From Patescibacteria group bacterium (GTDB taxonomy: Bacteria > Patescibacteriota > Patescibacteriia > JAZDEU01), in NCBI GenBank assembly GCA_042568285.1, contig JBHPIX010000002.1, forward strand, positions 783-64,782: a DNA stretch of 64,000 nucleotides. The letters run 5' to 3'. Under the pieces are notes generated by a model. That model worked only from the letters and a program-made list of their open reading frames with translations, ran no database searches and was not told the origin of the DNA. Of the stretch, positions 2,521-63,555 are shown piece after piece. The stretch's first letter is position 1. Every line of letters begins with the position of its first letter. The translations under genes and the position numbers were made by a program.

Positions 2521-2630
2521 TGTCATTCCGTGCTTGACGAAGTTATTATAACTGGATCCCGCTCGTCTCGCTTCGCAAGCCGAAGCGGACATCAAGTGCC
2601 GTGCCTACCGGCAGGCAGGCGGGATGACAT
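2521..2630. repeat. GC-rich palindromic element, composite copy (tgtcatYccg ... cgggatgaca termini)
   Basis: Its termini, tgtcattccgtgcttgac and gcgggatgaca, are inverted. The nested module gatcccgctcgtctcgcttcgcaagccgaagcggacatcaagtgc recurs at 27136-27176 (reverse orientation) and 61914-61955. Confidence 0.85.
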
Positions 2631-11745: not shown

Positions 11746-11802
11746 AAAGTGATTTTTTCTCAATTCTTAGACAGTAACTAATCCCTAATTAACTAATTAT
11801 AT

Positions 11803-13528: not shown

Positions 13529-13566
13529 TAAAAACTATATTCCAATATATCATTCCAAATTTACTT

Positions 13567-13626
13567 GTGTCATCCCGCACTTGATGCGGGATCCAGATAT
13601 AGATCCCGCATCAAGTGCGGGATGAC
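13567..13626. repeat. 60-bp double-hairpin palindromic element (canonical copy)
   Basis: The sequence is tgtcatcccgcacttgatgcgggatc-cagatata-gatcccgcatcaagtgcgggatgaca. Confidence 0.9.
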
Positions 13627-13663
13627 AAATTGAACTAATTAGTTACAATTTAATAAATTAAAA

Positions 13664-16958: not shown

Positions 16959-17130
16959 AGTTCCCCCTTTTATAAAGGGGGACAAGGGGGATTCTGTCTA
17001 AGTAAACATCCCCCCTGTCTCGACTGGCGCGAGCCAAGGCGGACTGTCCCCCCTCACAGAGGGGGGCACTAATGCCCAAATCCCTCACAATTCGTGTAGA
17101 TTCGTTCCTAAAATCGTGTTAATTCGTATA
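16959..17130. repeat. Cluster of GC-rich repeat modules
   Basis: It contains the cccccttttataaaggggg palindrome, cgagacagg/gtctcg-type words, cccctcacagagggggg, and the attcgtg module (caattcgtgtagattcgttcctaaaatcgtgttaattcgt). Related modules occur at 24284-24375, 28081-28147 and 49415-49597. Confidence 0.8.
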
Positions 17131-19339: not shown

Positions 19340-19431
19340 TGTCATCCCGCAATCCCGCCCTGCGGGATATGCGGGATCCAGCAATTACTACTTTCTTTAT
19401 TTCTGGATCCCGTGTCAAGCACGGGATGACA
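19340..19431. repeat. Palindromic element (tgtcatcccg ... cgggatgaca family)
   Basis: The sequence runs tgtcatcccgcaatcccgccctgcgggatatgcgggatcc ... ggatcccgtgtcaagcacgggatgaca. It lies between convergent genes. Confidence 0.85.
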
Positions 19432-19463
19432 ATTTTGAGACAACCTGAAGAGGGAGTGAACCA

Positions 19464-20183: not shown

Positions 20184-20239
20184 AATTTTGCATGCCTCCC
20201 CCCTTTAGAAGGGGGGACTAAGGGGGGTATTAACTATAT

Positions 20240-24283: not shown

Positions 24284-24375
24284 GCCTTCCCCCCATTCGC
24301 GCTTTTCGTCCGCCTCGGATCGACCGAGTCGAGACGGGTGTTGCCCCTGTTCTCATTCGTGTTTTTCGTGTTCCT
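24284..24375. repeat. GC-rich repeat modules (attcgtg, cgagac and related words)
   Basis: The sequence is ccccccattcgcgcttttcgtccgcctcggatcgaccgagtcgagacgggtgttgcccctgttctcattcgtgtttttcgtgttcc. ORF 24189-24377 lies mostly within this repeat cluster. Confidence 0.75.
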
Positions 24376-27120: not shown

Positions 27121-27231
27121 TGTCATCCCGCACTTGATGTCCGCTTCGGATTGCCCAAAGCGAGACGAGCGGGATCTATTCTGGATTCCGCGTCAAGCCT
27201 CGCCGAATCGGCGGGCAAGCGCGGAATGACA
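27121..27231. repeat. Palindromic element, composite copy with nested modules in both hairpins
   Basis: The sequence is tgtcatcccgcacttgat[gtccgcttcggattgcccaaagcgagacgagc]gggatc ... ggattccgcgtcaag[cctcgccgaatcggcgggc]aagcgcggaatgaca. Confidence 0.85.
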
Positions 27232-28776: not shown

Positions 28777-28849
28777 ATATAAACTTTTACACACCCCTGC
28801 CCCCTCTCATAGAGGGGAACTAACTGACACATTCTCTCATACTTTCCAC

Positions 28850-37139: not shown

Positions 37140-37350
37140 CAAAACTACTATCCCTGAAAATATAATCTATCTTGTCTACATCAAAAGGGCCATTTATGAT
37201 ATGGGCAAGAAAAAGCTTTGATGGCTCTTTAGTCTTTCCTATAATATACTTAGCTACTGTATCCAAATCTATTGATATAGGATAATTTGACTCAATGTTT
37301 TTATGGATTAATCCAACACAAGACTTTAATTCTCTGGGAAGTGGATTGTC
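37140..37350 (-). pseudogene. HD-domain (dGTPase/SAMHD1-like dNTP triphosphohydrolase) fragment abutting the right IS end
   Basis: The minus-strand frame reads ...LIHKNIESNYPISIDLDTVAKYIIGKTKEPSKLFLAHIINGPFDVDKIDYIFRDSSF and then enters the IS IR. It has no start codon and overlaps the 5' end of the LamG ORF. Confidence 0.45.
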
Positions 37351-40300: not shown

Positions 40301-42757
40301 CTGGTAGAGCTGGACTCCTACTCTGGCGCGGCAACTGCCACAACAACAACACCATCGTCTGCCGCAAACTCATACAGCTATGGCAGATGGGGAGAATCTT
40401 CTGGCTCGTTGATGATGGATGGAGGGGATACTTTAACATACCCGACAGCGAATAATATGTATGCTGATCAAGGATCATTCAGCTTTTGGATAAAGCCGTC
40501 TATGGACTATGACGACTATGCGGAAAATAAATACCTTTGGGATGTTTCAGACGGAACAAATAACGCCATAAGATTATATTACAATTATTCTGACTATAAA
40601 TTCTATTTTGAAATATACGACGGAGCGTCTTGGACATCTGTGCAAGCAGCTTCTTCTGCTCAATCTTTTACAGAAGACACGTGGATACATTTGGCAGGCA
40701 CATGGAACGACAGAAAAAATTTGGTTTATTTATATGTGAACGGCGCGAATGACGGATCATCGGATTGGGGTTGGTACGCGCAAACATTGCCGACTAATAT
40801 GTATTTTGGATCTGATTACAGCGGAACAAATAACGCTGATATGTATATTGACGATTTGCGGGTTTATGAATACGCGCTTTCAGCGGAAGATATTAGCCGA
40901 ATGTACGGCTCTCTTCCAGATCCGTCTGCTGACAATTTAAGAGTATCAATCCCATTCACATCAGGAGGAATTGGCATAGACGGAACTGGATTATTTGATC
41001 TCACTGGAACGTTTACTGCTGGGTGGGGATACCGAACTGGAAAAGTGTCTGGAGAAAACGCCATGCTCTTCGCTGGTTCCGACGATCTGCAGTTTTCACG
41101 TGGAGACCAGCTGGACGGCAACATTTATGAATATATTAGCCCGTATCAGGGCACGATTAAAACTTGGGTTAGATCTGGATTTGATGGATCAGATTCTACA
41201 ACAAATTACATTTTCCAAAATGGAAGCACAAGCTACATCAAACTGTACTCCAGTTCAGGAACTCTATATTTTGACATAGCAACAACAACAGGCGCTGTTA
41301 TTAGCAGAGTATCAAATGACATTTCTGGCTGGACAGCGGGAGAGTGGCATCATATTGCCGCAGTTTGGAGCAATGAAAATACTGTTTCAACAAGTTCCAC
41401 TCAATATTTAATGGAACTATATGTGGACACTGCCATCGCTGGAAATACTTATACTAATGCCACATTTAACACAAATTTTTGGGCATCGTTCGCCCCCGGA
41501 ACATCTTTTATTGGAGAAGATTCAGATTCAGCAAATCAGTGGGATGGATTGATTGGAGGATTTGTTTTGGAAAATCGGGCTTGGAGCGGGAATGAAGTGT
41601 CTGACGACTATAATTCTGGAACAGGCACTGCGGTTGCGGTTAATCAATCAACCATTATGTCCCTGCCATTTGATTCAGCTGATCTTGACGGATTGGTAAC
41701 TTGGGCAACCTCTACACAAAATGTGGTGGCTGATTGGAATATGGAAGATGGGGATGCGGGGGAATGGACAGATACGTTAAACGCTTCCAGCTCCGCAGAA
41801 TCAGGAATCGTAACAGCAGAGGATGGGTTGGTGGGGGGATGGAATTTTGAGGATGATTTAACAGATGATAGCGGGAATAGCAAGACAGGCGTTTCTCATA
41901 CAGATCCAGACTGCCCGACAGGCTATGTATTTGTTCCCGGTAATTCAACTTATAGCACAAGCGATTTCTGTGTAATGCAATATGAAGCGAAGTATGATTC
42001 TAATGACGACGGGACAGGGGATGACGCGCCAACAGAATGTAAATATAACACAGATTATGATACTTGGGACTGGGGGAAAGATGTAGCGACAGAATGCGGG
42101 TATGATGTAAATGAAACAGCAAGAGTAGTATCAACAGCGGCAGGATCTCCAATAGCTGGCATTACGCATACAGAAGCGTTAAGCGCCTGTCCCTCTGGGG
42201 ATCATATAATAACAAATGACGAATGGATGACAATCGCAAGAGACGCGGAACAAGTGAATGCTAACTGGACAGGCGGAGAAGTCGGTTCGGGGTGTTTGTT
42301 TGCAGGGAATAATGGAGACGCGACTTGCGGGTATAATGGCGATGATCCAGAAAAAGGAACTGGAAGAAACGCGAGAGCTAAATTTATTCTTTCCAGCGGA
42401 GAAGAAGTTTATGATATATCAGGAAATGTTTGGGAACATGTAAAAGTTGATGCAAGTGATACTTTAATTGATGACACTCCTACTGACGGCGGGGCGGCTG
42501 AATGGCGTTGGATTGAATTTACAGCTATTACAGGCTATGGCGATCTTAGTTATGATCAAATTAGACCTTCTAATTCTTCTTGGAATGCTGATCAAGGGAT
42601 GGGGCGATTATATACCTATAATGGCGTGAGTAGCAACCGCGTGTTTCTTCGTGGTGGCATGTGGTCCGATGATACTAACGCCGGCGCGTTCACGTTGAGC
42701 TTGAATTGGACGGCGAGCACTCAGCATTATACTGTTGGTGTGCGGTGTGCCAGGTAG
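37295..42757 (+). CDS. DGR target protein: multi-LamG (concanavalin-A-like) repeat protein with CBM-like modules and a C-terminal C-type-lectin/FGE-sulfatase-fold variable domain; apparently 5'-truncated
   Basis: The LamG signature recurs (F(D/N)G.IDSVRIYNRAL(T/S)A.EI..HY) along with NGGFE...YFDD modules. The C-terminus reads CPTGYVFVPG...DISGNVWEHV...VFLRGGMWSDDTNAGAFTLSLNWTASTQHYTVGVRCAR. There is no signal peptide or RBS, and the ORF begins inside a LamG domain (MFLWINPTQ). Confidence 0.85.
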   Translation: MFLWINPTQDFNSLGSGLSYEQIFISKSPTNGAEEGSFIFKIDTDTDKLQFGAFDNAGDVVVNIFGTNTSWNANQWYQIAITFNGAGYEVYLDGQSDGYTTDSDSFGSTDQTYYIGRAGNDVNPQYFDGLIDSVRIYNRALTANEIRAHYDLGSHIQDGDMEDASGSRVVGEWNQSSEGAELLTNGGFETAGGGGADVWGTWAENAGDGGLANETSIKYAGSDAASTTAGSLTDTFVKQAAAVTTGNMYKATFYTRGDGTYSGQYAIWDATNDAVITATTTAGITGTTYTKFTKYFTAPSSCASVDLHLYAPSTEGGTAYFDDASVIAAQVASPESGIVRAEDGLVGGWNFSGTSGTSADGDTLTDVSGNSNDGTGVDGANNTGLGFVSGRFGTAIEFDGVDDYVDCGTNSSLLPNIFTAIAWVKYDGSQTDAPLITWATTQPGIYIEFLNVGPLIYIGVENFRYFEKDSPVDVFNNKWHQLAFVVTGNAQNDIDNSKLYVDDREQDIRTTNNTGTPDTKTFLRIGVGHSNYFNGAIDSVRVYNRALSAGEIVAHYSSTRGKFGEYSAKIKLVDDNSNSYLDEILTDDQDYLLSYWYKAGEDNANPINFTASGTAIMLPEQNIMASSTTGLVGAWNFEEAATPSVDVSGNGHSLTWNGTAAKSTSGKFANAIDLDGDSDYLNKTDSDSLDLASAATISAWVYLDDLAAQHCIADKGTNYGVHIDTSGYLTWDNGTEYKDTTAIAATTWTHAVVVNDGTTASYYINGTYSSNDTAGFAAINASDLRIGYDGTNYYQGLIDNLRIYNKALTASEVYESYKAGDWRQYELSFEADAGVAGVHAFSFIQDGTTAGNSIVYVDNFRLDKNLADKGSFEAFSGGDPDIPTGWVNESLSAGEGDEGDEEIHSGSKSFELIDADDGEGIMQGITVTSGNWYTFGMWAKNNNQDVEAIIGGTALASTTIDLTTAGNIWTKFNKTFIASSTDLAILISAGAATQDGYFDDVSLVELDSYSGAATATTTTPSSAANSYSYGRWGESSGSLMMDGGDTLTYPTANNMYADQGSFSFWIKPSMDYDDYAENKYLWDVSDGTNNAIRLYYNYSDYKFYFEIYDGASWTSVQAASSAQSFTEDTWIHLAGTWNDRKNLVYLYVNGANDGSSDWGWYAQTLPTNMYFGSDYSGTNNADMYIDDLRVYEYALSAEDISRMYGSLPDPSADNLRVSIPFTSGGIGIDGTGLFDLTGTFTAGWGYRTGKVSGENAMLFAGSDDLQFSRGDQLDGNIYEYISPYQGTIKTWVRSGFDGSDSTTNYIFQNGSTSYIKLYSSSGTLYFDIATTTGAVISRVSNDISGWTAGEWHHIAAVWSNENTVSTSSTQYLMELYVDTAIAGNTYTNATFNTNFWASFAPGTSFIGEDSDSANQWDGLIGGFVLENRAWSGNEVSDDYNSGTGTAVAVNQSTIMSLPFDSADLDGLVTWATSTQNVVADWNMEDGDAGEWTDTLNASSSAESGIVTAEDGLVGGWNFEDDLTDDSGNSKTGVSHTDPDCPTGYVFVPGNSTYSTSDFCVMQYEAKYDSNDDGTGDDAPTECKYNTDYDTWDWGKDVATECGYDVNETARVVSTAAGSPIAGITHTEALSACPSGDHIITNDEWMTIARDAEQVNANWTGGEVGSGCLFAGNNGDATCGYNGDDPEKGTGRNARAKFILSSGEEVYDISGNVWEHVKVDASDTLIDDTPTDGGAAEWRWIEFTAITGYGDLSYDQIRPSNSSWNADQGMGRLYTYNGVSSNRVFLRGGMWSDDTNAGAFTLSLNWTASTQHYTVGVRCAR
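42635..42756 (+). other. DGR variable region (VR)
   Basis: It is 122 nt and 109/122 identical to 43199-43320, with 11 mismatches opposite TR adenines. It covers the last 40 codons of the target ORF. Confidence 0.88.
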
Positions 42758-42801
42758 TTTGTAGATATCTGGTATCTGAAATTTAGGTATCTGGTAAAAT
42801 T

Positions 42802-43134
42802 ATGATAAATGATTTAATACTTTTTCAAAAATTTTATGATTTTATCCTTTGGATTTATCCTACGGTCAACAAATTTCCCAAAACCCAAAGATTTGTTTTA
42901 GGACAGCAAATTTCAAATACGGTTTTAGATATTTTAAAAAATATAATTCAGGGAAATTCTGAACGATATAAATTACCATATCAAAAACAGGTAAGTGTTG
43001 ATCTGGATAAATTAAGGATTCTAATTCGTCTTTCAAAAGATTTAAAATTTATAAGTATAAAGCAATATGGATTTGCTTCGGATAAAATTAATGAGATTGG
43101 AAGATTGTTGGGTGGTTGGATAAAAAATACTTAG
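42802..43134 (+). CDS. avd: DGR accessory variability determinant (Avd-like four-helix-bundle protein)
   Basis: It is 110 aa and lies between VR and TR. Avd-like features are YPTVNKFPKTQRFVLGQQI and the C-terminal EIGRLLGGWIKN. Confidence 0.8.
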   Translation: MINDLILFQKFYDFILWIYPTVNKFPKTQRFVLGQQISNTVLDILKNIIQGNSERYKLPYQKQVSVDLDKLRILIRLSKDLKFISIKQYGFASDKINEIGRLLGGWIKNT

Positions 43135-43198
43135 AACATATAAACTTGAAGTTATTTAGGTTTATGCGTTTTAGGACGCAGAAGGGGTAAAGTCGCAT

Positions 43199-43320
43199 AA
43201 CCGCGTGTTTCTTCGTGGTGGCAAATGGAACAATGAAACTAACGCCGGCGCGTTCACGTTGAACTTGAATTGGAATGCGAGCAATCAGAATTATAATGTT
43301 GGTTTGCGGTGTGCCAGGTA
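43199..43320 (+). ncRNA. DGR template repeat (TR)
   Basis: It is a non-coding copy of the VR, rich in AAY codons when read in the VR frame (NRVFLRGGKWNNETNAGAFTLNLNWNASNQNYNVGLRCAR). It has 32 adenines, 11 of them substituted in the VR. Confidence 0.88.
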
Positions 43321-43483
43321 TTTCTCAATTTGGTCTGAGTGAAATGCTTACGGGCATAAGTCCGAGCCAGAAAACTACTGATTTTATTCCATCCTTGAAA
43401 AAGGAAAATACTTGGCTTTTACCTCAAGGCGGTGAGAGTATTTTCTTTAGAAAAGAAATTTCCGTCTTGAGCATTAAGCCATT

Positions 43484-44515
43484 ATGAAATCACACAAGAA
43501 TTTATTTTTAAAATTTTGTTCTTTTGAAAATCTATATAGCGCATACTTAAAAGCAAGAAGTTGTAAACGATATAAAGAGTATGTTTTGGAATTTAGCTAT
43601 AATTTAGAGCAAAATTTATTCTTTTTACAAGATGAATTAATAACTCAAAAATATCATTGTGGAAAATATAATGAATTTATTGTTAATGATTCAAAAAAGC
43701 GACTTATTAAAGCGCCTGATTTTAGAGATAGAATTGTCCATCACGCGTTATGTAATATTATTGAACCGATTTTTGACAATAGTTTTATTCACGATAGTTA
43801 TGCCTGCAGAAAAAACAAAGGAACGCATAAAGCGATTTTGAGATTAAAGGGTTTTTTAAAAAATAAAGAAAATGTTTATTGTTTACAATGTGATGTTAGA
43901 AAATTTTTCGCGAGTATAGATCAGAATATTTTAAAAGAATTGACAAAGAAGAAAATAGCGGATAAAAAAATTTTGAAAGTTATAAATTTAGTAATAGATA
44001 GTAGTTTTGACAATAAAATTTATGAAAATTTATTTGATTTTCGTTTAACAGGAGTTCCTTTAGGAAATCTTACAAGCCAGCTTTTTGCTAATATTTATTT
44101 GAACGAATTAGATCAATTGGTAAAGCATAAACTAAAAGCAAAATATTATATTCGCTATATGGATGATTTTTTAATTTTGGGGTATAATAAAAAGAGATTG
44201 CAACAGCAAAAAGAAGAAATATATTATTTTTTGAAGAATAGCTTAAAATTAGATTTGCATCCTAAGAAATGTAATATGTTTACTGTAAAAAGTGGAATTG
44301 ATTTTCTTGGTTATAGAATTTTTGCAAATTATCGTTTGTTAAGAAAAAGCACAGTGAAAAGATTTATAAAGAGGACAAGAGTTTATAAACGGAAAGTAGA
44401 TAGCGATTTGATGTCATTAGAAAAATTTAATCAATCTTTGCAGTCATGGCTTTCTTACGCTAAATTTGGGAATTCATGGGGGTTGATTGGAAGTTTGGTT
44501 GAGCTTTGGAATTAA
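43484..44515 (+). CDS. DGR reverse transcriptase
   Basis: RT motifs include GVPLGNLTSQLFANIYL (44051-44086; the (I/L)GxxxSQ signature typical of DGR RTs) and YMDD (44156-44167). It starts 164 nt downstream of the TR. Confidence 0.9.
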   Translation: MKSHKNLFLKFCSFENLYSAYLKARSCKRYKEYVLEFSYNLEQNLFFLQDELITQKYHCGKYNEFIVNDSKKRLIKAPDFRDRIVHHALCNIIEPIFDNSFIHDSYACRKNKGTHKAILRLKGFLKNKENVYCLQCDVRKFFASIDQNILKELTKKKIADKKILKVINLVIDSSFDNKIYENLFDFRLTGVPLGNLTSQLFANIYLNELDQLVKHKLKAKYYIRYMDDFLILGYNKKRLQQQKEEIYYFLKNSLKLDLHPKKCNMFTVKSGIDFLGYRIFANYRLLRKSTVKRFIKRTRVYKRKVDSDLMSLEKFNQSLQSWLSYAKFGNSWGLIGSLVELWN

Positions 44516-48483: not shown

Positions 48484-48640
48484 AAAGAATCCCCCTCGTC
48501 TCGCCTTTCCGCTTCGGGCTCGAATCGAGACGAGCGGCAAGCCGAAGCGGACTGACCCCCTTTTGAAAAGGGGGAACTAGAGGAATTAATTTAGCAAGTG
48601 CCCCCCTCTGGAGGGGGGATAGGGGGAAGGTTAAATTTTA
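48484..48640. repeat. GC-rich modular repeat cluster (intergenic)
   Basis: The sequence aaagaatccccctcgtctcgcc...ggcaagccgaagcggactgacccccttttgaaaagggggaacta is followed by the gtgcccccctctggagggggg palindrome. The first module recurs inside the giant ORF at 51956-52024. Confidence 0.85.
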
Positions 48641-48709
48641 AATTTTAAAAAAACCTGCCCGACTTTGTCATTCAGGCGGGTATCAAATAACAAATTTTAA
48701 AAGGGCTCT

Positions 48710-48786
48710 GGATTCCCGCCTTCGCGGGAATGACAAAAACGCATTCGTGGGGAATGACAAAGAGGCTTCGCGGGAATGACAAAAAC
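48710..48786. repeat. Three tandem half-elements ending in gggaatgacaaa
   Basis: The sequence is ggattcccgccttcgcgggaatgacaaaaac / gcattcgtggggaatgacaaagag / gcttcgcgggaatgacaaaaac. It generates the artificial MTK...GMTK N-terminus of ORF 48730. Confidence 0.8.
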
Positions 48787-48816
48787 GGGAGGGGAGGGAA
48801 TAATTTCAAATTAGTT

Positions 48817-49350
48817 ATGGTTATAAATATGCTTAAAGAAGAAAACAATTTAGCTTTTGTTGACGGACAGAATTTATATTTAGGGACAACAAAGTCAAAA
48901 AACAGGTGGAAAGTTGATTTAGCTAAGTTTAGAATTTATTTGAATAAAAAATATAAAGTTGATAAAGCTTATTATTTTTTGGGGTGCGTTAATGATAATT
49001 ACCAAGATTTGTATGACGAAATTCAAGAAGCTGGTTTTATTTTGAAATTTAGAGAACATAATACTGTTATGTTGGGGAAGAAAAAAGGCAATGTTGATTC
49101 AGATATTATATTTTTTATTATAGAAAAAATGTATAGAAAAGAAAAATTTGATAAAATTATTTTAGTCTCTGGCGATGGTGATTATAGAAAATTAGTTGAT
49201 TTTTTGATTGAAGAAAATAGGTTTGAGAAAATTCTTTTTCCAAATAAGAAATTCGCGTCTTCCTTGTATAAAAAATTATCAAGCAAATATTATGACCATT
49301 TAGGAAACGAGGAAATAAAAGCGAAAATAAAAAAGGGTCCCCTTAGGTAG
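48817..49350 (+). CDS. NYN/LabA-like (PIN-like) domain protein
   Basis: It has LAFVDGQNLY, GNVDSDIIF and ILVSGDGDY motifs. The start is moved to ATG 48817 because the first 29 codons of the tracked ORF are repeat sequence. Confidence 0.7.
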   Translation: MVINMLKEENNLAFVDGQNLYLGTTKSKNRWKVDLAKFRIYLNKKYKVDKAYYFLGCVNDNYQDLYDEIQEAGFILKFREHNTVMLGKKKGNVDSDIIFFIIEKMYRKEKFDKIILVSGDGDYRKLVDFLIEENRFEKILFPNKKFASSLYKKLSSKYYDHLGNEEIKAKIKKGPLR

Positions 49351-49414: not shown

Positions 49415-49597
49415 GGTGTGGGGGGGGATCCTTGTCAACCCTGTTTCTGCTGGAATACACGAAGGGGGGAACACGAATCTTGAGAGTGGGGACAGTCCGC
49501 CTTTCCGCCTCGGCTCGCTCCGCTTCGGATTGCCTAAGGCGAGACGGGAGCTCAGCGAGACAGGGGCTCGACAGCAAAGTCGAGACAGGGGGTGTGT
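49415..49597. repeat. GC-rich modular repeat cluster
   Basis: It contains acacgaa modules, gtccgcctttccgcctcggctcgctccgcttcggattgcctaaggcgagacgg, and cgagacagg words. The overlapping ORFs 49382-49609 (-) and 49407-49631 (+) are probably artefacts. Confidence 0.8.
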
Positions 49598-49785
49598 AAA
49601 ATTTGGCAAGGAATTTATAAATATGGTATAATAATTGGGGAATGAATTTTAAATTTTAAATTTAAAAAAAATAATCAATAATAAATATCAAATAACCAAA
49701 CGGGAAAATCAAATCCAAATGTCAAAAATGGAAATGGGAATTTAAAATGTTTAAAAGAAATATAAAATTAAAAAATAAAAATAGC

Positions 49786-50082: not shown

Positions 50083-53000
50083 ATGCAAAAAAATATAAAA
50101 AATAAAAATCACAGACCCCCCCCTACCCCCCCCTTAGTAAGGGGGGGAGCGAATAACCTCCCCCCTGCCAAGGGGGGAAGCAGGGGGGTAGAAAAGAGGG
50201 GAATTATATTGTTGTTAACAGCTATTTTTGTTGTGAGTGGAATTTTTGGCGGTCTGCTGAAAACGAAAAAAGTAAATGCGCAAAATTTTATAGATACGGC
50301 TGCTCTGCAACAACGAGAAAGAGACTATCAGACTCACCTTGCAGAGGAAGCAGCAGACAAAGCTAAAGAGTTGAAGTGGAAGGCATTTAAGACGGCGACT
50401 TATAATATAATAGTTAGCATGGCAAATAATTTTACTCAAAGCCTTGCTTATAATTCAGCTGTATTTATAGCAGAAGGCGGGAAAGGCAGACAAGGTTTAG
50501 GTTGGAGTGAAAGTTGGAGTAAATATTTGAACGATGCAAAAGATGCCGCTCTTGGCGACTTTATTGGTTCAATTAGCCAAGTATGGGGAGTAGATTTTTG
50601 CGATCCCGGAGCGCTTGAAAAAATAGATATAACATTTGGGTTAATCGCAAGTATTCAAAAACCGCCTAAACCGAGATGCGATTGGAAAGATATAAAAAAC
50701 AGTTGGGACAAATTAGATGACAATGATTTTACTACAAAATTAGGATTTATGTTTAATCCAAAAGTTAATTATTTAGGAAGCAGTTTTGCTCTTAAGTCAG
50801 AAATGGAGCAGTCAGCAAAAGATAATGAAAACTTAGCTAAAATGGTCAGAGGAATACCAACAGAAACAGGATTTAAAAGTATCAATGATACTGTGTCAGG
50901 GTATATACAAACTCCTGATAGTATAATTAAAGAGATGGCATGGTATCCTGCGGATGAAGCGGCAAGAAATAGGCAAACAGAGGGGATCGGTAACGCTCTT
51001 ATGGCAGATCTTGTTGTCCCAACATTTAAGACATTTTTTAGCACCCTCACTGGAAAGTTAATGGAAAAATGGGCAAACAAAGGAATGTTTCAAAAAAGTT
51101 CTGGAAGCAGATCTATAACTGATCCAGAATCATCTGCCACATTAGTTGCGTCGCAAAATGACACAAAAGCGATGTATGGAGATTTAATGGAATCTGAGTT
51201 TGGAGCTGGAGGTAATTATGATATTTTATCTGATTTTGTTTCTTGCCCTGTTATGCCTCAAAATTTAAAAAATGGACCAACAAATTGTGTTATTGACAAC
51301 GGTTTTAGAATGGCTATTGAAGAAGGATTGACAGTTGGACAGGCTATAAATAATAATTATTTAAAAAAAGATAATATTTTTGGGTTTAAATCTGACGGGC
51401 AAACCCCAGATTATAAAGAAGGATATTCTTTGCGGAATATGATTATTTTAAGGAGCTATCGCATATTGCCAGTTGGCTGGGAAATAGCGACGCAATATAT
51501 TGAAAAATACATTGAAAGTGAAGCATATACTTTAGGCGAAATGGTTGCTTGTTATTCTATTGATGATAATTGGACAGGAGTTGAAGAAAGTTGGTGCAGA
51601 GGTATGGTTGATCCATCATGGGTTTTGAAAGCTCCAGCGAATAATTGTGATAAAATGGCTTATGGCCAAGAAATAATAAGTAAATCTACTAGTAAAGGAA
51701 TAGATATGAATAAAGACGGGAAATATTATAATTTTAATAAAGATAAAGATGATCCGTTAAATGAATTAGATGATAATGACAGTCCGCCAATAATGAACAT
51801 AACCCGCAATGAATTCTGCGCGGAAACTCAAAGTTGTTTAATGGAACGGGATGATGGCAGTTGTTTGAAATGGGGGACTTGTTTGGAGGAAAAGCGGATA
51901 TGGGAATTTGAAGGTGATAAATGCGATGCTATATATAATAGTTGCATGGAATATGAAAGAATCCCCCTCGTCTCGCCTTCGGCAAGCCGAAGCGGACTGA
52001 CCCCCTTTACAAAAGGGGGAACTAACACCACCTCGTCAACACGGGGAGGAATTGCGTATTTGAAAAATAGTTTGGATTATGGGGTTTGCGGAGCGAATAA
52101 TGCTGGATGTTCTTGGTTATGCCAATATTATGATAAAGAAAAAGAAGAATGGACATGTGGAATGGATCCAGCTTCGCCTTTAGCGTTTCCAGAAGGATAT
52201 AGTTTGCCAGCTCCGACGACTGGCGCGTTATTTTTTGATAATTCTGTCCAAGAATGCGAACAAGCGGATGAAGGATGTCATAAATATATTAGATTGACAG
52301 ACGGAGCGAATTTAGTTTTTAATGGCGGATTTGAAAAGGGCGCTGAAACAGCTTTAAATTTAGATGGTCAGCCCGCCAATTCTTCTGTAATAATCAAATT
52401 TAATGATTGGCCTATTGAAAAAAGTTCTGGAGATAATTTTGAAATTGAAAAGATGATTGATAATGAAAAAGGAGGCTGGGTTTATAAAATAACAACAAAT
52501 GGTGGAAATAATGGATTATATTTTTATGATAATTCTAAAAAAGATTTAACATTGATGCCAAGTAATTACAGATTTGATTTGTATAAAAATTACGTGTTTT
52601 CCGTTGATGTAAAAGTGATTTCTGGAAAGGTTGAGATCGGGCTTACAGACGGATCTGCACGGATTGTAAACGGATCTTCACGGATAGGTGAATGGGAAAG
52701 AATAGTTGTTGAATTGCCAAAGGAAGAAATGATTATCAATAAAGCTTTTATACATAGTGTTGGAGGATCGGAATTTTATTTAGATAATGTTCAATTGGAG
52801 GAGGTACAGACGGATTTGCACGGATTGGGAACGGATGGGGACGGATATGCGTATAAGGAGTATGGAGATTATAGCAGAGTAGCTTATATTAAAAAAGCTC
52901 CTGATTATTTAGATTGCGCGAATAATATAAAGTTATTTAAGCAAGGAGTGGAAAATGGGACTCTTACACCAACTGAACTGGAAAATTATGAAAACATTTT

Positions 53001-56000
53001 ATCAGAGTGCTCTAATTACGCTATGGAATGTTCTGAAGAACAGGTCGGTTGCCAAAAATATTCTCCTGTAAATGGAGATCCATGGATACCTGCTATTATT
53101 TCGGAAGAAGATACATGCGATTATGAATGTGTTAATTATAAATCATATAAACAAAGCGCGACTAATTTTTCAACGGCTATAATGAATGTCAATTTTATTG
53201 CAGATAGTCCTTATTTGGGCTCCGCACCACCCCCTAACCCCCTCCTCGGGGAGGAGGGGGGCATCGCGCCACCGCTCGGTGGAGCTGGCTCGGGGGGGAG
53301 GTTATGTCCTGCTTCAACGTCTGGATGTACAGAATTTACTAATTTAGATGAATTAGAACAAGAAGGCGAATCAAAAGAATATTATAGTTTTTTAAAGCGA
53401 TGCGTTAAACCAGATGACGCAGGAGTGTCTTGTGGAACATTTTATACATGGATAGGAAGCGATACAGCCGGGTATCAATTAAAAGAATATTATTTAGAGA
53501 AAGCTGGTGATGGCGTTAGAGAAATAAATAATCCGCAGGATTTTGGAGAATGTAATAATCAGCAGGACGCTATAGATAATTCAGCTAATTGTAAGGAATT
53601 TTATAGTGAAGATGGAACTGTCTATTATGCTATTTATCAAAATACAGTGACTTGTAGCGAAAACTGTCATCCTTATCGTCAAACTAGCGATAGAATAAAT
53701 AAATCAGAATGCGTTTTTTATGGAAGTACATGGAATAATGGACTAGATGTATGTAATTTAGAAAAAGAAAATTGCGATAATAGCGGAGGTATATGGGATA
53801 CTAATGAAAAAGCTTGTATGTATCAAGCAGTTCCAGAAGAGGGGATAGTTTGTTCAGTTGAAAATGTAGGGTGCAGGGAATATAAAGGAACAACTAGCGC
53901 GAATGTTAAAATTATTCTTAGAGATGAGTTTGAAGGCATGGACAGTGATGGATGGGAAAATTCTGAACAAAGCAACAGATCAAGTTATTTTACTGGTCAT
54001 TCAATAACACCTACTGGAGCGAATGACATAATCAAAACCCTGTCTGGCGAATCTAATTTGCAAATCGGCAAAGAATATAAAGTGTCATTTTTGGCTAATT
54101 ATAATTCAAATAACAGCAGGACAGTGAGAATTCAATTAAGGGGAATAAATTTTATTGCTGAAAGAACATTGGAAATAAAAAATAACGAGACTGATGATTG
54201 GAATATATATCAGGCAGGTCCAATGGTTTTAACAGGAGATTTAGATGAAAATGGGGCGCTTGAAGGAAGAGATGCGAATATTATGAATGCTATTATCAGC
54301 AATCCAGCCAGCGCCACTGCCAAGCAGGTGGAACTTGCTGACATAAACGGCGATGGCATAGTGAACATCACAGATCGTGACATTTTTAATAATTATAGAA
54401 ATAACCCGAGCCAAGTTCAAGAAATAGTAATCAAAGACGTCAACAATAATTTATATTTTGATAATATAATTGTTAAGGAAGTTTTAGAAAATAGTTATTT
54501 AATAAAAGATTCTTGGACTGTTCCTGAAAAATGCGATGAACCTATTTCAGGGTTCCAACTGGGATGTGAAGAATACAAAAATATTGCAGGAGATTTTGTT
54601 CAGTTAAAATCTTTCACTGACATCTGTCCATCAGAAGCAGTTGGATGTTCGCGAATGATTGATACTTATAATTCAGATACTGTTTTAAAACAAGTTTTTA
54701 ATGAAAGCGATGAAAGTCAGATAATCGTCCCTGCTGATGAAGTGGTTTATTTTATTGATGATTTCTCAAAAGAATGTCATCTTGAAGATAAAGGGTGCCA
54801 GCGACTTGGCGTTCCTCAGTTTAATAAAGATAGAACAGCATTAGATGTTGATGCAGGCGGATATAGCGGAGATGTTTATCTAATAAATAATCCTGATAAT
54901 TATGGAAGTATATTATGCGAATATGAAGCTGTTAATTGTTCTGAATTTGAAGATAGCGATGGTAATAAAAATTATTTTAAGGATCCTGGGGATAAAGTGT
55001 GCCAATACGCAAATGGTCAATGGTTGAAAAATGGTACAGAAGAAGCATGTCCTACAGAAATAAATTTTGATTTCACTATTGGCGCTAATGGAATAGATGT
55101 TCCTATGCCTACAAACGGATGGGCTGGATTATGCCCTTCTTCTCAAAGTGGATGCTTAGAATATATAGATCCTTTAAGTGATAATAATCCCAACTTAATT
55201 TTAAATGGAGATATTGAACAGGATATTGATAAAAATGGGCGACCTGATGAATGGAATAATTGCTTATCTATTCCTTTTGGGTATGGAGATAGTAAAGCGA
55301 TTAGCTCAAATTGCAATCAAACTATTTTATTTAAAAAACCTGGATTATATACATTATCCGCTTTAGTAAGAGGCGCTGGAATACTTACTATACAGGGATG
55401 TTATACAAGTTCGCCTGATAATAGCATGGTAATAGAGCCAGACGGAGCATTGACTAAAGCAAATTTAATATTTTTTATGGAAGGCGCTAATCCTGATACG
55501 CCGTTAGAGATAAGAAGTGGAAGATTTTATGTTTATGAGCCTGATTTGGAATGTGAATTGATTGCGCGAAGCGATTTAGGAATAGGGGCAGATCCAACTA
55601 TGGATGAAATTAGCATAAGGGAAACAGGAGTTTATTATAATTTAGATGATACAGTTAATGGATGTTCAGAGTATTCTAATTATGAAGGATGCGTTTTGGT
55701 TAATCAAAGAAATTTATTGCAGACTGAATGGAATGAAAATAATGAGATTAAGCCTGTTTATAATGATTTAATATATAGTTCTAATCTAGCTGTTAGCGGA
55801 AAAAATAACATTACATGCGATATACAAAAAAATGAATTAGCAAATTATTGCGATGATAATTATATAGATGGAACACCTGCTTTTGAGAATTGCGCAAAAA
55901 TAATCGCGCAAACTCAAAAAGGTTTTTGCAGCGCGAATAAATTGATTAAAGCAAAACAAGATAGAGTTTGTGATAGGTGGCTATATGATATGACATCTGA

Positions 56001-58368
56001 AAAAATCACAAACACGAAAGGCGAGACTGAGATAAAAGTTTGGAATGTAGGGGAATGCAACGCTCTTGATGAATCAGGTCAATGTATAAGAAAGGTGGAA
56101 AGCCCAAAAGAGAATATTGAATTTTCTTTTGTTAATATTGATTTAATGAATAATATTTCAGGCATGAGTAAAGTTGGATTTCAATGGGATAACAACCATA
56201 AAATAGAAGGCAATTATTCTATAAGCAATATGTCGCAGTTTGGACAGATGATAAATTTTCAAGGAGGATTTGAAATGTCAACACCTGTTGGACAGCCAGT
56301 AGGATGGGAGAGCGAAGCTGAAATAGAGTATGGAGAAGCTTGGAGTCCTATTTATTTTCAAGTTATAAATAATCCAGTTGACTCTCAACTTGAATTAGGA
56401 TTAGACTCAATATCAGCTCCTGAAGGAAAAAATTTCTTAAAGATTAATAGAGATTATAAGGCATTTACTAAATATTTTCCAGCTTATGACAACATGGAAT
56501 ATGTTATAAGCGGATCAATTAATAGTATTAACTCTGGCGCAAATGCTTCTGCTCAAATACAAGTTTTAGTTTATGGACAAAATAAAAATAGATTACAAAT
56601 AAATAATCATGATGGAGAGAGGATTATATTATCGTTAGATGGTGGCAAGCAGTGGACTTTTTTATCAAAAAGATTTACAATTAATAATAGCGAAGCCGCA
56701 TTTTTGAGAATTGAACTGATTAATTATTTAGGTTCTGAAGATGATTCTGCGTATTTTGATGACATTACTATCCTGCCTGCTTTAGAATTAAGAGATAGCG
56801 AGGACATCTCCGCAATGGCTCCGTCAATATGCAAGATATATCCGCAAGAAGATTCTTTAGCTTGCGAGTATGTTGGGGATGAAGGATTATCTTATAGAGG
56901 AGAAAGAGGATATTGTCTTGAATATGACAGAGCGCCTGGAAATCCAGATGTGTGTATAAACTGGTTCCCTACTAATGTCATTAGAGGCGACGAGGAAATT
57001 GAAATGCCATTATTCAATGAAGGAATACCTTTATTTTATTGCGCTGAAGTCCAGCTTTTGGAATATAGGAAGACAACAAATGCTCCGCTATGTGTCAATT
57101 GTAATAACCAATGCCCAGTAGAAGGAGGTTATGTATGTAGTGGCTGTCATGGCGATCATGGAGGTGGCAGGGGCAATGGAAGGTGTATTCCTAGTGGAGA
57201 AATTATAATACAAGATAATGATGGAGACGCTAAGTCTGGCTGGTATGATTATAATGGGACAATTCGCTATGGAGAATATGCTAATGACACGGGAGGTAGA
57301 ACTAGAATATATTCTGAAGAATTGTTAGCGCGATGCGTTAAAATTATACAAGTTGCTAAATTAGGAGGAGAGAACAGGGCTTGGTTTGATAGAATGATTT
57401 CAAATACTGATTATGCGGGAGTTCCTGATTTGATGTATAACGATGAAAATTATAAATATAATAGTTTTAATTCGCCTTATGGCGCGATGATAAGTCCAGA
57501 TGGCGAGATTATTTATAATATTACTGAATTAGAGGGAAATGAAGATACTATAGATGGAAAAGATGCTTTGATGATTTTAAGAACTACTAACGGCGAGTAT
57601 ATTGGAATGCCTGAATGGGGGTTGCCTTATTCTGCCAGTAGCACTCATTTTTCTACCGCGTATTATAACGTTAATGGCGATGATTTACAGTTTATTGAAT
57701 TTGGAGTTCCTGTTCAAAATAGTATAGAGGGAGCTACGGATCGTTTGAAAAATTTATTCGCGGAAAGTTATCTTGCTTGGGAATGGGATGATAGATTAAA
57801 AAAATATCTTGTAGCGCCAGAATTTATATGGGGACCGCCAGAAAATATATGCGCTGGAAACAGAAGAACCGAAGCTATGACAGTAACAGAACAATTTTGC
57901 GGTATTCCTCCTATTATAGATAATATAAAAATTGGCAATTCTTCAGGAGGACAAATAGAAATTGGAAGGAATAGCAGTGTTTTATTGAAATTTACAAGCG
58001 AAATAAATAAAGAACAGACTCCTCTTACCGCTTATTATATTGATTGGAGAGATGGGACAGATAGTATCGCGGAAGAATTAAAGGTTATGGATAAACCGCA
58101 TATTACTAATCCGCATAGTTTTAGTCATTTTTATAGTTATGATGATGTGTATAAAAATAGAAATTTAACAGGAATAAATTGTTATGATTTTGACGATCCT
58201 GAGTGCGCCATTTATGAAAGAGGAGATTGCTGTTTAGTAAAACCGAGAATAAGAATAACCGATAATTGGGATTGGTGCAGTGATGGAATAGACGGATCTC
58301 CTTGTCCTTCTAATAATAAAGCTAATTGGGATGAGTTTGGCGGGTTGATTGTTGTTAGTGAGAGGTAG
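50083..58368 (+). CDS. Giant (2761-aa) Cys-rich secreted or surface protein with CBM-like modules and a dockerin-like EF-hand pair
   Basis: It has an N-terminal TM/signal helix (IILLLTAIFVVSGIFGGLL) and NGGFE...FYLDNVQL / YFDDITILP jelly-roll-like modules. A dockerin-like segment is DLDENGALEGRDANIM...ADINGDGIVNITDRDIF. Three GC-rich repeat modules sit in frame. The start is uncertain (ATG 50083 or TTG 50209). Confidence 0.8.
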   Translation: MQKNIKNKNHRPPPTPPLVRGGANNLPPAKGGSRGVEKRGIILLLTAIFVVSGIFGGLLKTKKVNAQNFIDTAALQQRERDYQTHLAEEAADKAKELKWKAFKTATYNIIVSMANNFTQSLAYNSAVFIAEGGKGRQGLGWSESWSKYLNDAKDAALGDFIGSISQVWGVDFCDPGALEKIDITFGLIASIQKPPKPRCDWKDIKNSWDKLDDNDFTTKLGFMFNPKVNYLGSSFALKSEMEQSAKDNENLAKMVRGIPTETGFKSINDTVSGYIQTPDSIIKEMAWYPADEAARNRQTEGIGNALMADLVVPTFKTFFSTLTGKLMEKWANKGMFQKSSGSRSITDPESSATLVASQNDTKAMYGDLMESEFGAGGNYDILSDFVSCPVMPQNLKNGPTNCVIDNGFRMAIEEGLTVGQAINNNYLKKDNIFGFKSDGQTPDYKEGYSLRNMIILRSYRILPVGWEIATQYIEKYIESEAYTLGEMVACYSIDDNWTGVEESWCRGMVDPSWVLKAPANNCDKMAYGQEIISKSTSKGIDMNKDGKYYNFNKDKDDPLNELDDNDSPPIMNITRNEFCAETQSCLMERDDGSCLKWGTCLEEKRIWEFEGDKCDAIYNSCMEYERIPLVSPSASRSGLTPFTKGGTNTTSSTRGGIAYLKNSLDYGVCGANNAGCSWLCQYYDKEKEEWTCGMDPASPLAFPEGYSLPAPTTGALFFDNSVQECEQADEGCHKYIRLTDGANLVFNGGFEKGAETALNLDGQPANSSVIIKFNDWPIEKSSGDNFEIEKMIDNEKGGWVYKITTNGGNNGLYFYDNSKKDLTLMPSNYRFDLYKNYVFSVDVKVISGKVEIGLTDGSARIVNGSSRIGEWERIVVELPKEEMIINKAFIHSVGGSEFYLDNVQLEEVQTDLHGLGTDGDGYAYKEYGDYSRVAYIKKAPDYLDCANNIKLFKQGVENGTLTPTELENYENILSECSNYAMECSEEQVGCQKYSPVNGDPWIPAIISEEDTCDYECVNYKSYKQSATNFSTAIMNVNFIADSPYLGSAPPPNPLLGEEGGIAPPLGGAGSGGRLCPASTSGCTEFTNLDELEQEGESKEYYSFLKRCVKPDDAGVSCGTFYTWIGSDTAGYQLKEYYLEKAGDGVREINNPQDFGECNNQQDAIDNSANCKEFYSEDGTVYYAIYQNTVTCSENCHPYRQTSDRINKSECVFYGSTWNNGLDVCNLEKENCDNSGGIWDTNEKACMYQAVPEEGIVCSVENVGCREYKGTTSANVKIILRDEFEGMDSDGWENSEQSNRSSYFTGHSITPTGANDIIKTLSGESNLQIGKEYKVSFLANYNSNNSRTVRIQLRGINFIAERTLEIKNNETDDWNIYQAGPMVLTGDLDENGALEGRDANIMNAIISNPASATAKQVELADINGDGIVNITDRDIFNNYRNNPSQVQEIVIKDVNNNLYFDNIIVKEVLENSYLIKDSWTVPEKCDEPISGFQLGCEEYKNIAGDFVQLKSFTDICPSEAVGCSRMIDTYNSDTVLKQVFNESDESQIIVPADEVVYFIDDFSKECHLEDKGCQRLGVPQFNKDRTALDVDAGGYSGDVYLINNPDNYGSILCEYEAVNCSEFEDSDGNKNYFKDPGDKVCQYANGQWLKNGTEEACPTEINFDFTIGANGIDVPMPTNGWAGLCPSSQSGCLEYIDPLSDNNPNLILNGDIEQDIDKNGRPDEWNNCLSIPFGYGDSKAISSNCNQTILFKKPGLYTLSALVRGAGILTIQGCYTSSPDNSMVIEPDGALTKANLIFFMEGANPDTPLEIRSGRFYVYEPDLECELIARSDLGIGADPTMDEISIRETGVYYNLDDTVNGCSEYSNYEGCVLVNQRNLLQTEWNENNEIKPVYNDLIYSSNLAVSGKNNITCDIQKNELANYCDDNYIDGTPAFENCAKIIAQTQKGFCSANKLIKAKQDRVCDRWLYDMTSEKITNTKGETEIKVWNVGECNALDESGQCIRKVESPKENIEFSFVNIDLMNNISGMSKVGFQWDNNHKIEGNYSISNMSQFGQMINFQGGFEMSTPVGQPVGWESEAEIEYGEAWSPIYFQVINNPVDSQLELGLDSISAPEGKNFLKINRDYKAFTKYFPAYDNMEYVISGSINSINSGANASAQIQVLVYGQNKNRLQINNHDGERIILSLDGGKQWTFLSKRFTINNSEAAFLRIELINYLGSEDDSAYFDDITILPALELRDSEDISAMAPSICKIYPQEDSLACEYVGDEGLSYRGERGYCLEYDRAPGNPDVCINWFPTNVIRGDEEIEMPLFNEGIPLFYCAEVQLLEYRKTTNAPLCVNCNNQCPVEGGYVCSGCHGDHGGGRGNGRCIPSGEIIIQDNDGDAKSGWYDYNGTIRYGEYANDTGGRTRIYSEELLARCVKIIQVAKLGGENRAWFDRMISNTDYAGVPDLMYNDENYKYNSFNSPYGAMISPDGEIIYNITELEGNEDTIDGKDALMILRTTNGEYIGMPEWGLPYSASSTHFSTAYYNVNGDDLQFIEFGVPVQNSIEGATDRLKNLFAESYLAWEWDDRLKKYLVAPEFIWGPPENICAGNRRTEAMTVTEQFCGIPPIIDNIKIGNSSGGQIEIGRNSSVLLKFTSEINKEQTPLTAYYIDWRDGTDSIAEELKVMDKPHITNPHSFSHFYSYDDVYKNRNLTGINCYDFDDPECAIYERGDCCLVKPRIRITDNWDWCSDGIDGSPCPSNNKANWDEFGGLIVVSER

Positions 58369-58385
58369 GGACACGAATTATAAAA

Positions 58386-58775
58386 ATGTCAAATAACAAA
58401 GTTCAAATGTCAAATCAAGCTCAAAATTCAAAGGTCAAAAAAAACTATAATTTAGGAGAACGAACAGCAAAATTTGGGGAAGATATTATTGTATTTTCTA
58501 AGTCTATATCACATAATGCAGTGCATAATCCGCTTATAAGTCAAATAGTAAGATCAGGAACGAGTATAGGCGCAAATTATATGGAAGCAGATGGCGCAGA
58601 ATCAAAAAAAGATTTTAGACATAAAATAGCAATAGTAAAAAAAGAATCAAAAGAAACAATGCATTGGCTTAGGATGATTGCCAAAGCTAATCCAGAAAAA
58701 GCGCAAGAGTGTAGAAAATTATGGAAAGAAGCTCACGAATTTGCTTTAATTTTTTCTTCTATACTTAGGAAATAG
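58386..58775 (+). CDS. Four-helix-bundle protein of the 23S-rRNA-IVS / S23p family (Avd-related), orphan
   Basis: It has the family core QIVRSGTSIGANYMEADGAESKKDFRHKIAIVKKESKETMHWLRMI. The first ~20 codons overlap caaatgtcaaat-type repeat words. Confidence 0.75.
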   Translation: MSNNKVQMSNQAQNSKVKKNYNLGERTAKFGEDIIVFSKSISHNAVHNPLISQIVRSGTSIGANYMEADGAESKKDFRHKIAIVKKESKETMHWLRMIAKANPEKAQECRKLWKEAHEFALIFSSILRK

Positions 58776-61858: not shown

Positions 61859-61965
61859 TGTCATTCCGCGCTTGCCTCGCCGATTCGGCGGGCTTGACGC
61901 GGAATCCAGTATAGATCCCGCTCGTCTCGATTCGAGCCGAAGCGGACATCAAGTGCGGGATGACA
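61859..61965. repeat. Palindromic element, composite copy
   Basis: The sequence is tgtcattccgcgcttg[cctcgccgattcggcgggc]ttgacgcggaatcc ... gatcccgctcgtctcgattcgagccgaagcggacatcaagtgcgggatgaca. It supplies the ATG at 61960. Confidence 0.85.
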
Positions 61966-61977
61966 AATATATTTTAT

Positions 61978-63436: not shown

Positions 63437-63444
63437 AATATCCT

Positions 63445-63506
63445 TGTCATCCCGCACTTGATGCAGGATCCAGAAATTTAGATCCCGCATCAAGTGCGGG
63501 ATGACA
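63445..63506. repeat. Double-hairpin palindromic element
   Basis: The sequence is tgtcatcccgcacttgatgcaggatc-cagaaattta-gatcccgcatcaagtgcgggatgaca. Confidence 0.9.
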
Positions 63507-63555
63507 ACTGTATCATTTTTTGGATTTTGAAATTTGAAATTTTATAAAAAAAAAT

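Follow-up and report, generated by a model that had tools for sequence, protein, structure and literature searches.

Short GC-rich palindromic repeats of two families lie in frame in a giant surface-protein gene of an AT-rich Patescibacteria genome

Palindromic repeats lying in frame within protein genes have been documented in several bacteria, including the Rickettsia palindromic elements (RPEs), BRE, ERIC and others (PMC10969869, PMC3184786). As far as the available account goes (Ogata et al., 2002, as described in PMC10969869), RPEs are dispersed palindromes of a reduced, AT-rich genome which occur both between and inside genes, whose genic copies are in frame and predicted to be translated at tolerant sites, and for which no partner transposase is known; all of this resembles what we describe here. 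In this study, we analyzed a stretch of about 64 kb (hereafter the window) from an AT-rich contig of a Patescibacteria metagenome-assembled genome (MAG), and found short GC-rich palindromic elements between genes and, three times, in frame within a single giant gene for a 2761-aa secreted or surface protein (50083..58368, plus strand). We consider it likely that these are selfish hairpin repeats akin to REP, MITE or RPE sequences, whose genic survivors are in frame, free of stop codons, located in tolerant loops and translated as Pro/Gly-rich stretches.

The elements share with RPEs that they are multicopy palindromes present in both intergenic and genic positions, and that the genic copies are in-frame insertions relative to orthologues without them. 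RPEs, so far as that account conveys, measure about 100-150 bp, are confined to Rickettsia and occupy many unrelated genes, whereas the present elements are 39-96-nt, mutually nesting mosaics of C-runs and G-runs in a Patescibacteria host. Thus, they work like RPEs and are not members of that group by host, size and architecture, a distinction drawn from these features. Short GC-rich palindromic mobile clusters are also known from AT-rich organelle genomes, namely the GC clusters of yeast mitochondria and the 'byp' elements of Magnusiomyces, some of which are intragenic and which are often nested or clustered. These differ from ours in their organellar location, and ribosomes skip over byp elements; those described here bear every sign of being read through, as they are in frame and stop-free, in one case with a stop removed. 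The small dispersed repeats of cyanobacteria, which Elhai and co-workers reportedly described in 2008 as very small, nesting within each other and tolerated inside genes, differ in sequence and host and are set apart here by description. Finally, REP/REPIN-RAYT systems and bacterial MITEs (ERIC, BOX/RUP, BRE, QMITE1) are similarly short, structured, non-autonomous and mostly extragenic, occasionally form in-frame fusions with open reading frames (ORFs), and can be targeted by further insertions once established (PMC3184786, PMC10969869). In contrast with REP/REPIN-RAYT systems, we found no RAYT or insertion sequence (IS) partner in the window, saw neither target-site duplications nor the conserved 5' tetranucleotide of REPs, and noted that three copies were genic; neither the target-site duplication nor the cognate IS of a MITE was present in the window.

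The genome has a GC content of approximately 33%, against which the GC-rich islands stand out. According to the ORF list, the giant gene is the sole long ORF spanning 51956-52024. Its product was 100% identical to P0001, annotated by NCBI as 'dockerin type I repeat-containing protein [Patescibacteria group bacterium]', and contained a dockerin type I repeat, a weak match to CBM_4_9 and many Cys-rich modules.

First, we examined the 69-nt element at 51956..52024 (plus strand; 23 codons, in frame), which consists of a 5' arm (AATCCCCC), a module that we call the A-core (CGTCTCGCCTTCGGCAAGCCGAAGCGGA) and a hairpin (CCCCCTTTACAAAAGGGGG), and which contributes ..ERIPLVSPSASRSGLTPFTKGGTN.. (also given as ..RIPLVSPSASRSGLTPFTKGGT..) to the giant protein. 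A second, 96-nt copy was found between a LamG-like gene and a NYN gene (48484..48579, plus strand). Apart from a 27-nt indel, 67 of the 69 positions matched: the left arms were identical (24/24), a 27-nt block was present in the intergenic copy only, and the right parts agreed at 43 of 45 positions. The only two base differences were adjacent and fell in the last hairpin loop, TG in the intergenic copy (TTTTGAAAA) versus AC in the ORF (TTTACAAAA). The original prediction, that the two segments match save for a difference in the final loop and that the genic one adds 23 in-frame codons to a 2761-aa ORF, was thus borne out by alignment and translation. Its nested hairpin of about 30 nt in the intergenic copy measured exactly 27 nt (TCCGCTTCGGGCTCGAATCGAGACGAG) and proved to be a reverse-oriented copy of the core module (48508..48534, minus strand) lying in the loop of the outer A-core module, with its terminal 9 nt and 10 nt identical to the ends of the outer module. 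As only two of 69 positions distinguish the genic copy from its intergenic twin, it appears to be a recent or late arrival.

The nature of this difference is instructive. Read in the frame of the giant gene, the intergenic copy gives ..TPF*KGGT, the stop being a TGA that results from the perfect palindrome of the loop, versus ..TPFTKGGT in the genic copy. The two changed bases are precisely the TG of that TGA, and the palindrome of the loop is broken by the change. In the simplest reading, an A-type copy entered the gene and only a stop-free variant persisted, the direction of mutation being suggested by comparison of the two sequences. The A element was stop-free in four of the six frames.

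Second, the three patches of the giant gene belong to two families, A (the 69/96-nt element) and B (patches 1 and 3 and an element of a related locus, L001, described below). Sequence, folding and alignment placed patch 1, a B-type element of 75 nt (25 codons), in the N-terminal region at 50116..50190 (plus strand; PPPTPPLVRGGANNLPPAKGGSRGV), with an outer C8/G6 stem around two C/G hairpins. Patch 3, a diverged B-type element of about 75 nt, lay in frame at ~53227..53301 (plus strand; PPPNPLLGEEGGIAPPLGGAGSGGR), with CCCCCTAACCCCC as its 5' arm and two hairpins in addition to an outer stem. In general, family B has an outer stem of 6-8 bp (ACCCCCC..GGGGGGT) around one or two C-run/G-run hairpins. 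Simpler B-like units, made of a hairpin, a short linker and a G-run, were intergenic at 16963-16993 and 20198..20229; the latter, on the plus strand, reads CCCCCCTTTAGAAGGGGGG, ACTAA, GGGGGGTA. Hairpins of the C5..G5 type were matched 16 times in the window versus 0.1 expected. The two well-preserved B elements were stop-free in only two of six frames, and a single open frame, +0, was used by every genic B copy, of which the window has two and L001 one; this frame encodes PPxxPP(L/F)VRGG.. or a diverged form of it.

The status of these segments as insertions was assessed by aligning the giant protein with its seven closest homologues. In six of them (P0003-P0008; 29-41% identity), gaps fell exactly at residues ~625-648 and ~1047-1073, and the N-termini began about 30 residues after the first Met of the window protein, past patch 1; these gaps indicate that the patches are insertions and not conserved coding sequence. 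The protein aligned with its homologues on either side of each insert in a single continuous frame, the inserts being 69, 75 and ~75 nt long (96 nt in L001). When patch 1 is left out, the N-terminus reads MQKNIKNKNHR-EKRGIILLLTAIF.., resembling the Lys-rich N-terminal regions of the homologues (MQKNIKNKNHR..EKRGIILLL). The remaining homologue, P0002 (64% identical; locus L001 on a JGI metagenome contig), carried different Pro/Gly-rich inserts at both internal sites. At site 2, where the window has the A type, L001 had a 96-nt B-type element that was identical to window patch 1 at 68 of 75 positions (91%) with a 21-nt indel (alignment score 101.6 versus 21.7 for the best of 300 shuffles); at site 3 it had a decayed GC patch sharing CTCGGGGAGG with window patch 3. 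The presence of different repeat-derived inserts at the same two loops suggests that these loops are old or recurrent targets, and points to them as insertion hot spots. Comparison of orthologous genes therefore agreed with what had been proposed for the giant gene: no homologous peptides were present at the patch sites in P0003-P0008, and two further GC-rich palindromic patches do exist in frame at the refined positions given above. The proposal that one gene absorbed at least three repeat insertions without frame loss stands as regards insertion and frame, and has to be amended in that two families are involved instead of one and in that patch 1, which belongs to the ORF only where translation begins at the ATG at 50083, is probably but not certainly coding.

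We then surveyed both families across the window. Family A follows a plan of a 5' arm ((G)AATCCCCC), a core of 24-30 nt (CGTCTCG..CCGAAGCGGA) and, as the last part, a hairpin (CCCCCTTT-n-AAAAGGGGG) with AACTA after it; its ends were not clearly inverted repeats. The right half shares the layout of family B, and A may therefore be a B-type scaffold with a core module in its 5' linker. The A-core module occurred about nine times, versus 0.28 in shuffled sequences. In addition to the two copies compared above, a diverged 69-nt A-type copy without the 27-nt block was aligned at 17003..17071 (plus strand, intergenic), preceded by the B-like unit at 16963-16993 (hairpin, ACAA, GGGGGATT). The module scan revealed further intergenic copies at 2564..2589 (plus strand, fused to another hairpin family), 24309..24336 (minus strand, diverged), 27140..27167 (minus strand) and 61923..61946 (plus strand), those at 24309..24336 and 27140..27167 being co-oriented with the flanking minus-strand genes, as well as a composite of nested modules between the NYN gene and a tRNA gene (49484..49575, minus strand; inner module 49519-46). 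Nested modules were thus present at this position too, and also on a metagenome contig (L015). All seven A-core copies with unambiguous context were oriented like the flanking or host genes (two-sided sign test P ~0.016), which is suggestive only. A gap-tolerant alignment proposed a possible continuation of the genic A element at 52025..52047 (plus strand), in which 21 nt (ACACCACCTCGTCAACACGGG) without an intergenic counterpart are followed by GAGGAAT, the sequence directly following the intergenic copy; this weak, 7-nt match lies in a segment encoding ..NTTSSTRGG...

On either side of the NYN-domain gene (48730-49350) lay composite A-type elements, oppositely oriented, as well as the two copies of a direct AT-rich repeat (48626-48653 and 49644-49671), and its syntenic position in L001 was occupied by an unrelated 156-aa ORF. 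We considered this gene as a possible autonomous element and rejected it, as neither a transposase-like domain nor terminal inverted repeats of a convincing kind were found.

Overall, 16 of 19 palindromic loci lay in the approximately 18% of the window outside ORFs of at least 150 aa (binomial P ~7e-10), indicating that coding insertions are normally purged; the clear genic copies, three in number, all sat in the giant gene. A separate observation concerns a FemAB-family ORF (27715-28794), in which a G6/G7-flanked stretch with ACGAAT repeats at 28086-28146 (minus strand) encodes ..LGGNTNEHESKNESTRIGEGG.. and falls between two FemAB profile matches, where about 22 extra residues are present relative to FemX structures. 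It is possible that a second gene has here taken up a repeat in frame, a weak case given distant homologues and a motif that is not enriched. The 'ACACGAATC' motif found near some elements was not enriched (6 matches versus 3.5 expected).

Outside the window, an exact A-type pattern scan of species-representative genomes gave no matches, and an A-core scan of metagenomes returned two genuine short contigs of 38% GC (L015 and L017) with copies between ORFs, along with three chance matches in high-GC DNA. A relaxed A pattern gave only high-GC chance matches in viral contigs. These distributions bear on the direction of copying, since near-identical A copies could arise by copying either way: the patches might be native low-complexity linkers of the giant protein, with the intergenic copies representing gene fragments or products of gene conversion. 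We regard this as extremely improbable. Six homologues lack the segments; the roughly nine A-core copies are nearly all intergenic, in both orientations and nested; the A-core also occurs on the unrelated low-GC contigs L015 and L017; and the loop palindrome is perfect in the intergenic copy and imperfect in the ORF copy.

The frame properties also bear on whether the inserts are translated at all. GC-rich hairpins inside the coding sequence of an AT-rich genome are an analogous setting to that of byp elements, and the element hairpins here were stable (-26 to -51 kcal/mol), with coding-strand z-scores of -1.6 to -3.6 that were clearly below shuffles in three of four elements. One could therefore imagine that the ribosome skips them by programmed bypassing, byp-like or as in phage T4 gene 60, or that they are excised from the mRNA. 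Such processes demand neither a length divisible by three nor freedom from stops, yet the in-ORF copies in the window and in L001 were all in frame and stop-free; the B copies used one of only two open frames, and the A copy carries no mutations but those that abolish a stop of the host frame. In five further host genes (see below), the B units again kept the frame, and the broken frames, stop codons and matching take-off and landing codon pairs that mark byp elements were not seen. As bypassing or excision would not require the observed frame and stop properties, we judge this explanation very unlikely, and return to in-frame survival of selfish repeats as the preferred one.

To trace family B elsewhere, we scanned a genome collection with a 19-mer common to the window and L001 (AAGGGGGGAAGCAGGGGGG), and obtained 11 loci. 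Eight of them had complementary arms at the right spacing (ACCCCCCT.., ..CCCCCCTT), which the pattern had not required, although in three of the eight an arm was shortened or degenerate; the other three matches (L003, L006, which is the GPEGGKQGG of UvrA, and L010) lacked the arms and were set aside as chance. Because MAFFT misaligned the variable 5' linker, units were delimited by structure-aware regular expressions. The resulting B unit of 39-45 nt consists of ACCCCCCT, a linker, CCCCCCTT, a loop, AAGGGGGG (elsewhere AAGGGGGGAAGCAGGGGGGT), a linker and AGGGGGGT. Seven of the eight genuine loci lay inside long open frames, and in five of these seven the host gene was a conserved enzyme confirmed by Pfam: a D-glutamate cyclase family protein of Planctomycetota (L004, 7168-7208), a PAP2-GT39 protein of Nitrospirae (L005, 5592-5634), a HAD hydrolase of Nitrospirota (L007, 2156-2198), an ATP-grasp/GNAT acetyltransferase of Chloroflexi (L008, 1015-1056) and a UDP-sugar dehydrogenase of Bacteroidales (L011, 1867-1904). 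The other two were an 895-aa ORF of a cultured cyanobacterium, Chlorogloeopsis, which by eye resembles a TonB-dependent-receptor-like outer-membrane protein (L009, 7480-7504), and a 1128-aa ORF of Nitrospirota (L012, 5550-5579). All three forward frames were used (..KGGSRGV, ..RGEAGG, ..GGKQGG), and the reverse orientation occurred once. For the Chloroflexi protein, comparison with a solved homologue (PDB 9isq) showed an 11-residue gap exactly at the element.

A search with a concatenated peptide bait further identified two-hairpin B peptides (..PPFVRGG..PLTKGG.RGV) in proteins P0046 and P0047, and also in P0045, P0048 and P0049. Such peptides occurred at both ends of a DUF559/Vsr-like endonuclease ORF, in small ORFs, one of which runs on into an IS5-family N-terminal DUF4096 domain, and in a protein from a 3.45-Mb contig. 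The links to the DUF559/Vsr-like and IS5-family neighbours as possible mobilising genes are anecdotal.

The GT39 family of Nitrospirota offered a view of the history of one site. The inter-helix loop after LFWKAV carried element-derived peptides in many orthologues, in differing frames. The unit was intact in L145 and L147; in L144 it had decayed through C-to-T and G-to-A substitutions; L146 had nothing recognisable; and L005 (5580-5680) had an intact unit beside the 3' half of an older one. P0055/L144, a candidate for an empty allele, proved to be this decayed copy, and an exact empty/filled junction was not obtained in the orthologues compared. The loop parallels the comparison of the giant gene with L001, in that copies persist for a long time, decay in place and are joined by new copies at the same spot.

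Two further explanations can be weighed against this broader sample. As the source is a MAG and repeats are classic points of mis-assembly, the contig might be chimeric or mis-joined at the repeats, or the C/G-runs might be sequencing artefacts. However, the protein is collinear with its homologues on either side of every insert, the independent JGI assembly L001 shows the same phenomenon, related units are present in an isolate genome (Chlorogloeopsis sp. ULAP02, L009), and the inserts show the kind of variation in loops and linkers that is expected of evolving sequences; hence an artefact has next to no probability in our estimation. The other explanation is a recruited function. Slip-strand phase variation has precedent in other bacteria, and owing to patch 1, codons 1-36 of the giant gene contain tracts of C8, C8, G7, C6, G6 and G6. 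The coding DNA of the window has 13 C/G tracts that reach 6 nt or more, and eight of them are in this gene. The C8/G7 tracts near the 5' end might thus act as a slip-strand 'contingency' switch, or the Pro/Gly stretches might be selected as flexible linkers, in line with the retention of inserts at the same loops in the 64%-identical orthologue. On the other hand, like units sit in housekeeping enzymes, where switching would be harmful, and copies decay in place (L144 versus L145; site 3 of L001) as neutral passengers would. We consider a recruited function unlikely, and the inserts are better read as selfish repeats.

Viral contigs gave a different picture. One B pattern had no matches there, whereas a relaxed pattern had at least 120, of which about 50% were in open frames versus 68% of random windows; as this set was not enriched in coding sequence and was structurally looser, it was kept apart from the strict B unit. 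Many phage and provirus contigs (L077-L103 and others) contained a recurrent C6 hairpin, 3-6 nt and a G6 run (often ..GGGGGGATTT), and in several the reverse complement of this motif lay immediately upstream of a GGAGG ribosome-binding site and start codon. The viral motif could be a regulatory or terminator-like class.

Considering the eight loci of one exact-pattern scan and a few proteins on which a cross-phylum reading rests, we propose tentatively, as a possibility that we do not yet hold to be the probable one, that the B unit is not private to this lineage and is one member of a cross-phylum family of tiny nested C-run/G-run hairpins, stop-free in all three forward frames, which lie in frame in conserved proteins of Patescibacteria and of the groups named above and repeatedly re-colonise the same protein loops, i.e., a horizontally spreading, pan-bacterial counterpart of RPEs. 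Neither the literal sequence of the unit nor its peptides were present in the searchable literature, where keyword searches returned only the general class, and we found no publication describing a cross-phylum B unit.

Given that the segments are shown here to be repeats and insertions, with the frames and stops described, in part nested and mostly intergenic, the following course of events may be proposed. Several short, non-autonomous families of GC-rich palindromes would colonise an AT-rich genome, with small hairpin modules nesting into each other, and would land or be copied genome-wide. Within coding sequence, a copy would persist only if its length is a multiple of three, if it brings no stop codon into the reading frame of the host, and if it falls in a loop that a tolerant protein can afford to extend. 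The three survivors in the giant gene would then be transcribed and translated as stretches of 23-25 residues, rich in Pro and Gly because C-runs encode Pro and G-runs Gly, and the two B-type copies would be older than the A copy. Existing copies may attract or seed more of them by nesting, re-colonisation or gene conversion, which would explain the different elements at the same two loops in the orthologue of a related species. As to the mode of spread, the nested modules and recurrent target sites point either to insertion into hairpins already in place or to gene conversion among copies.

Several points weigh against this interpretation. Translation of the inserts is predicted from the reading frame, and the gene may in fact begin only after patch 1: a TTG just downstream of the patch, preceded by AAGAGGGGA (GGGGA, Shine-Dalgarno-like), is a candidate for the true start. 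An AlphaFold2 model of residues 560-1130 was confident only in a central beta-sandwich, with pLDDT <50 around both inserts. No target-site duplication was found in the flanks of nine B and three A copies, where only a stem-extending A..T pair recurred, and apart from the outer stem of 6-8 bp, these flanks showed nothing that was clearly a terminal inverted repeat. Pfam analysis of all ORFs of at least 150 aa identified no transposase or RAYT-like/Y1_Tnp gene in the window, a reverse transcriptase of the diversity-generating retroelement (DGR) type being the only mobile-element enzyme there, so that mobility is deduced solely from the distribution of the copies. Finally, a HMMER search with the A peptide against 1.84 billion protein representatives detected no other bacterial carrier; the sole strong match (P0043) came from a eukaryotic chromosome of 820 Mb, where it forms a tandem repeat, and another match (P0044) was an unrelated Cys-rich repeat protein. 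A-type coding insertions therefore seem to be rare, and family A looks lineage-restricted, with its genic copy a rare event. With Rfam covariance models at the gathering score, only tRNAs were matched in the window and eight related loci.

Some other features of the window were recorded. The giant gene has as neighbours LamG-type, He_PIG and TSP3-repeat surface proteins, a NYN-domain protein and a 23S-rRNA-intervening-sequence (IVS)-type protein, and the remainder of the window consists of housekeeping genes identified by Pfam (GyrB, FtsW, FtsH, aminoacyl-tRNA synthetases, purine synthesis). The IVS-type gene (58386-58775), which encodes a four-helix protein, lies directly 3' of the giant gene; the orthologous region of L001 is without it, and there the He_PIG gene comes straight after the giant gene. 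A class I aminoacyl-tRNA synthetase (2687-6124; IleRS-like, 1145 aa) has a His_Phos_1 domain at residues 494-640 embedded between two parts of the catalytic-domain match, an unusual domain insertion. A probable DGR spans 42635-44515, with a variable repeat (VR) at 42635-42759, a template repeat (TR) at 43199-43323 and a reverse transcriptase (RT) gene (RVT_1) just downstream at 43484-44515; the 125-nt repeats are 89% identical, one being the 3' end of an 1820-aa LamG-repeat gene (37295-42757), and the mismatches fall mostly at adenines of the copy upstream of RT. A separate intergenic, REPIN-like family, not that of the giant gene, forms inverted doublets of the hairpin GTCATCCCGCACTTGATGCGGGATC at 8597-8678, 11662-11765, 13559-13640 and 63444-63526, with single hairpins at 19406-19435 and 61940-61969, none of them in ORFs.

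RPE-like behaviour is known as a kind, and Patescibacteria is a phylum for which we found no prior report of it. Unexplained insertions in proteins and rRNAs are a recognised oddity of the Candidate Phyla Radiation, and our results extend to this group the RPE-like writing of selfish palindromes into proteins. The two-base, stop-removing difference between the A copies is an unusually clean footprint of the filter that acts on surviving genic insertions. For proteins derived from metagenomes, such inserts also lead in practice to gene calls, N-terminal extensions and alignments that are inflated or distorted. If the cross-phylum reading of the B unit is true, one tiny family would supply bacterial proteins in general with Pro/Gly loop insertions, and would serve as a lead to the enzyme by which such hairpins are moved.

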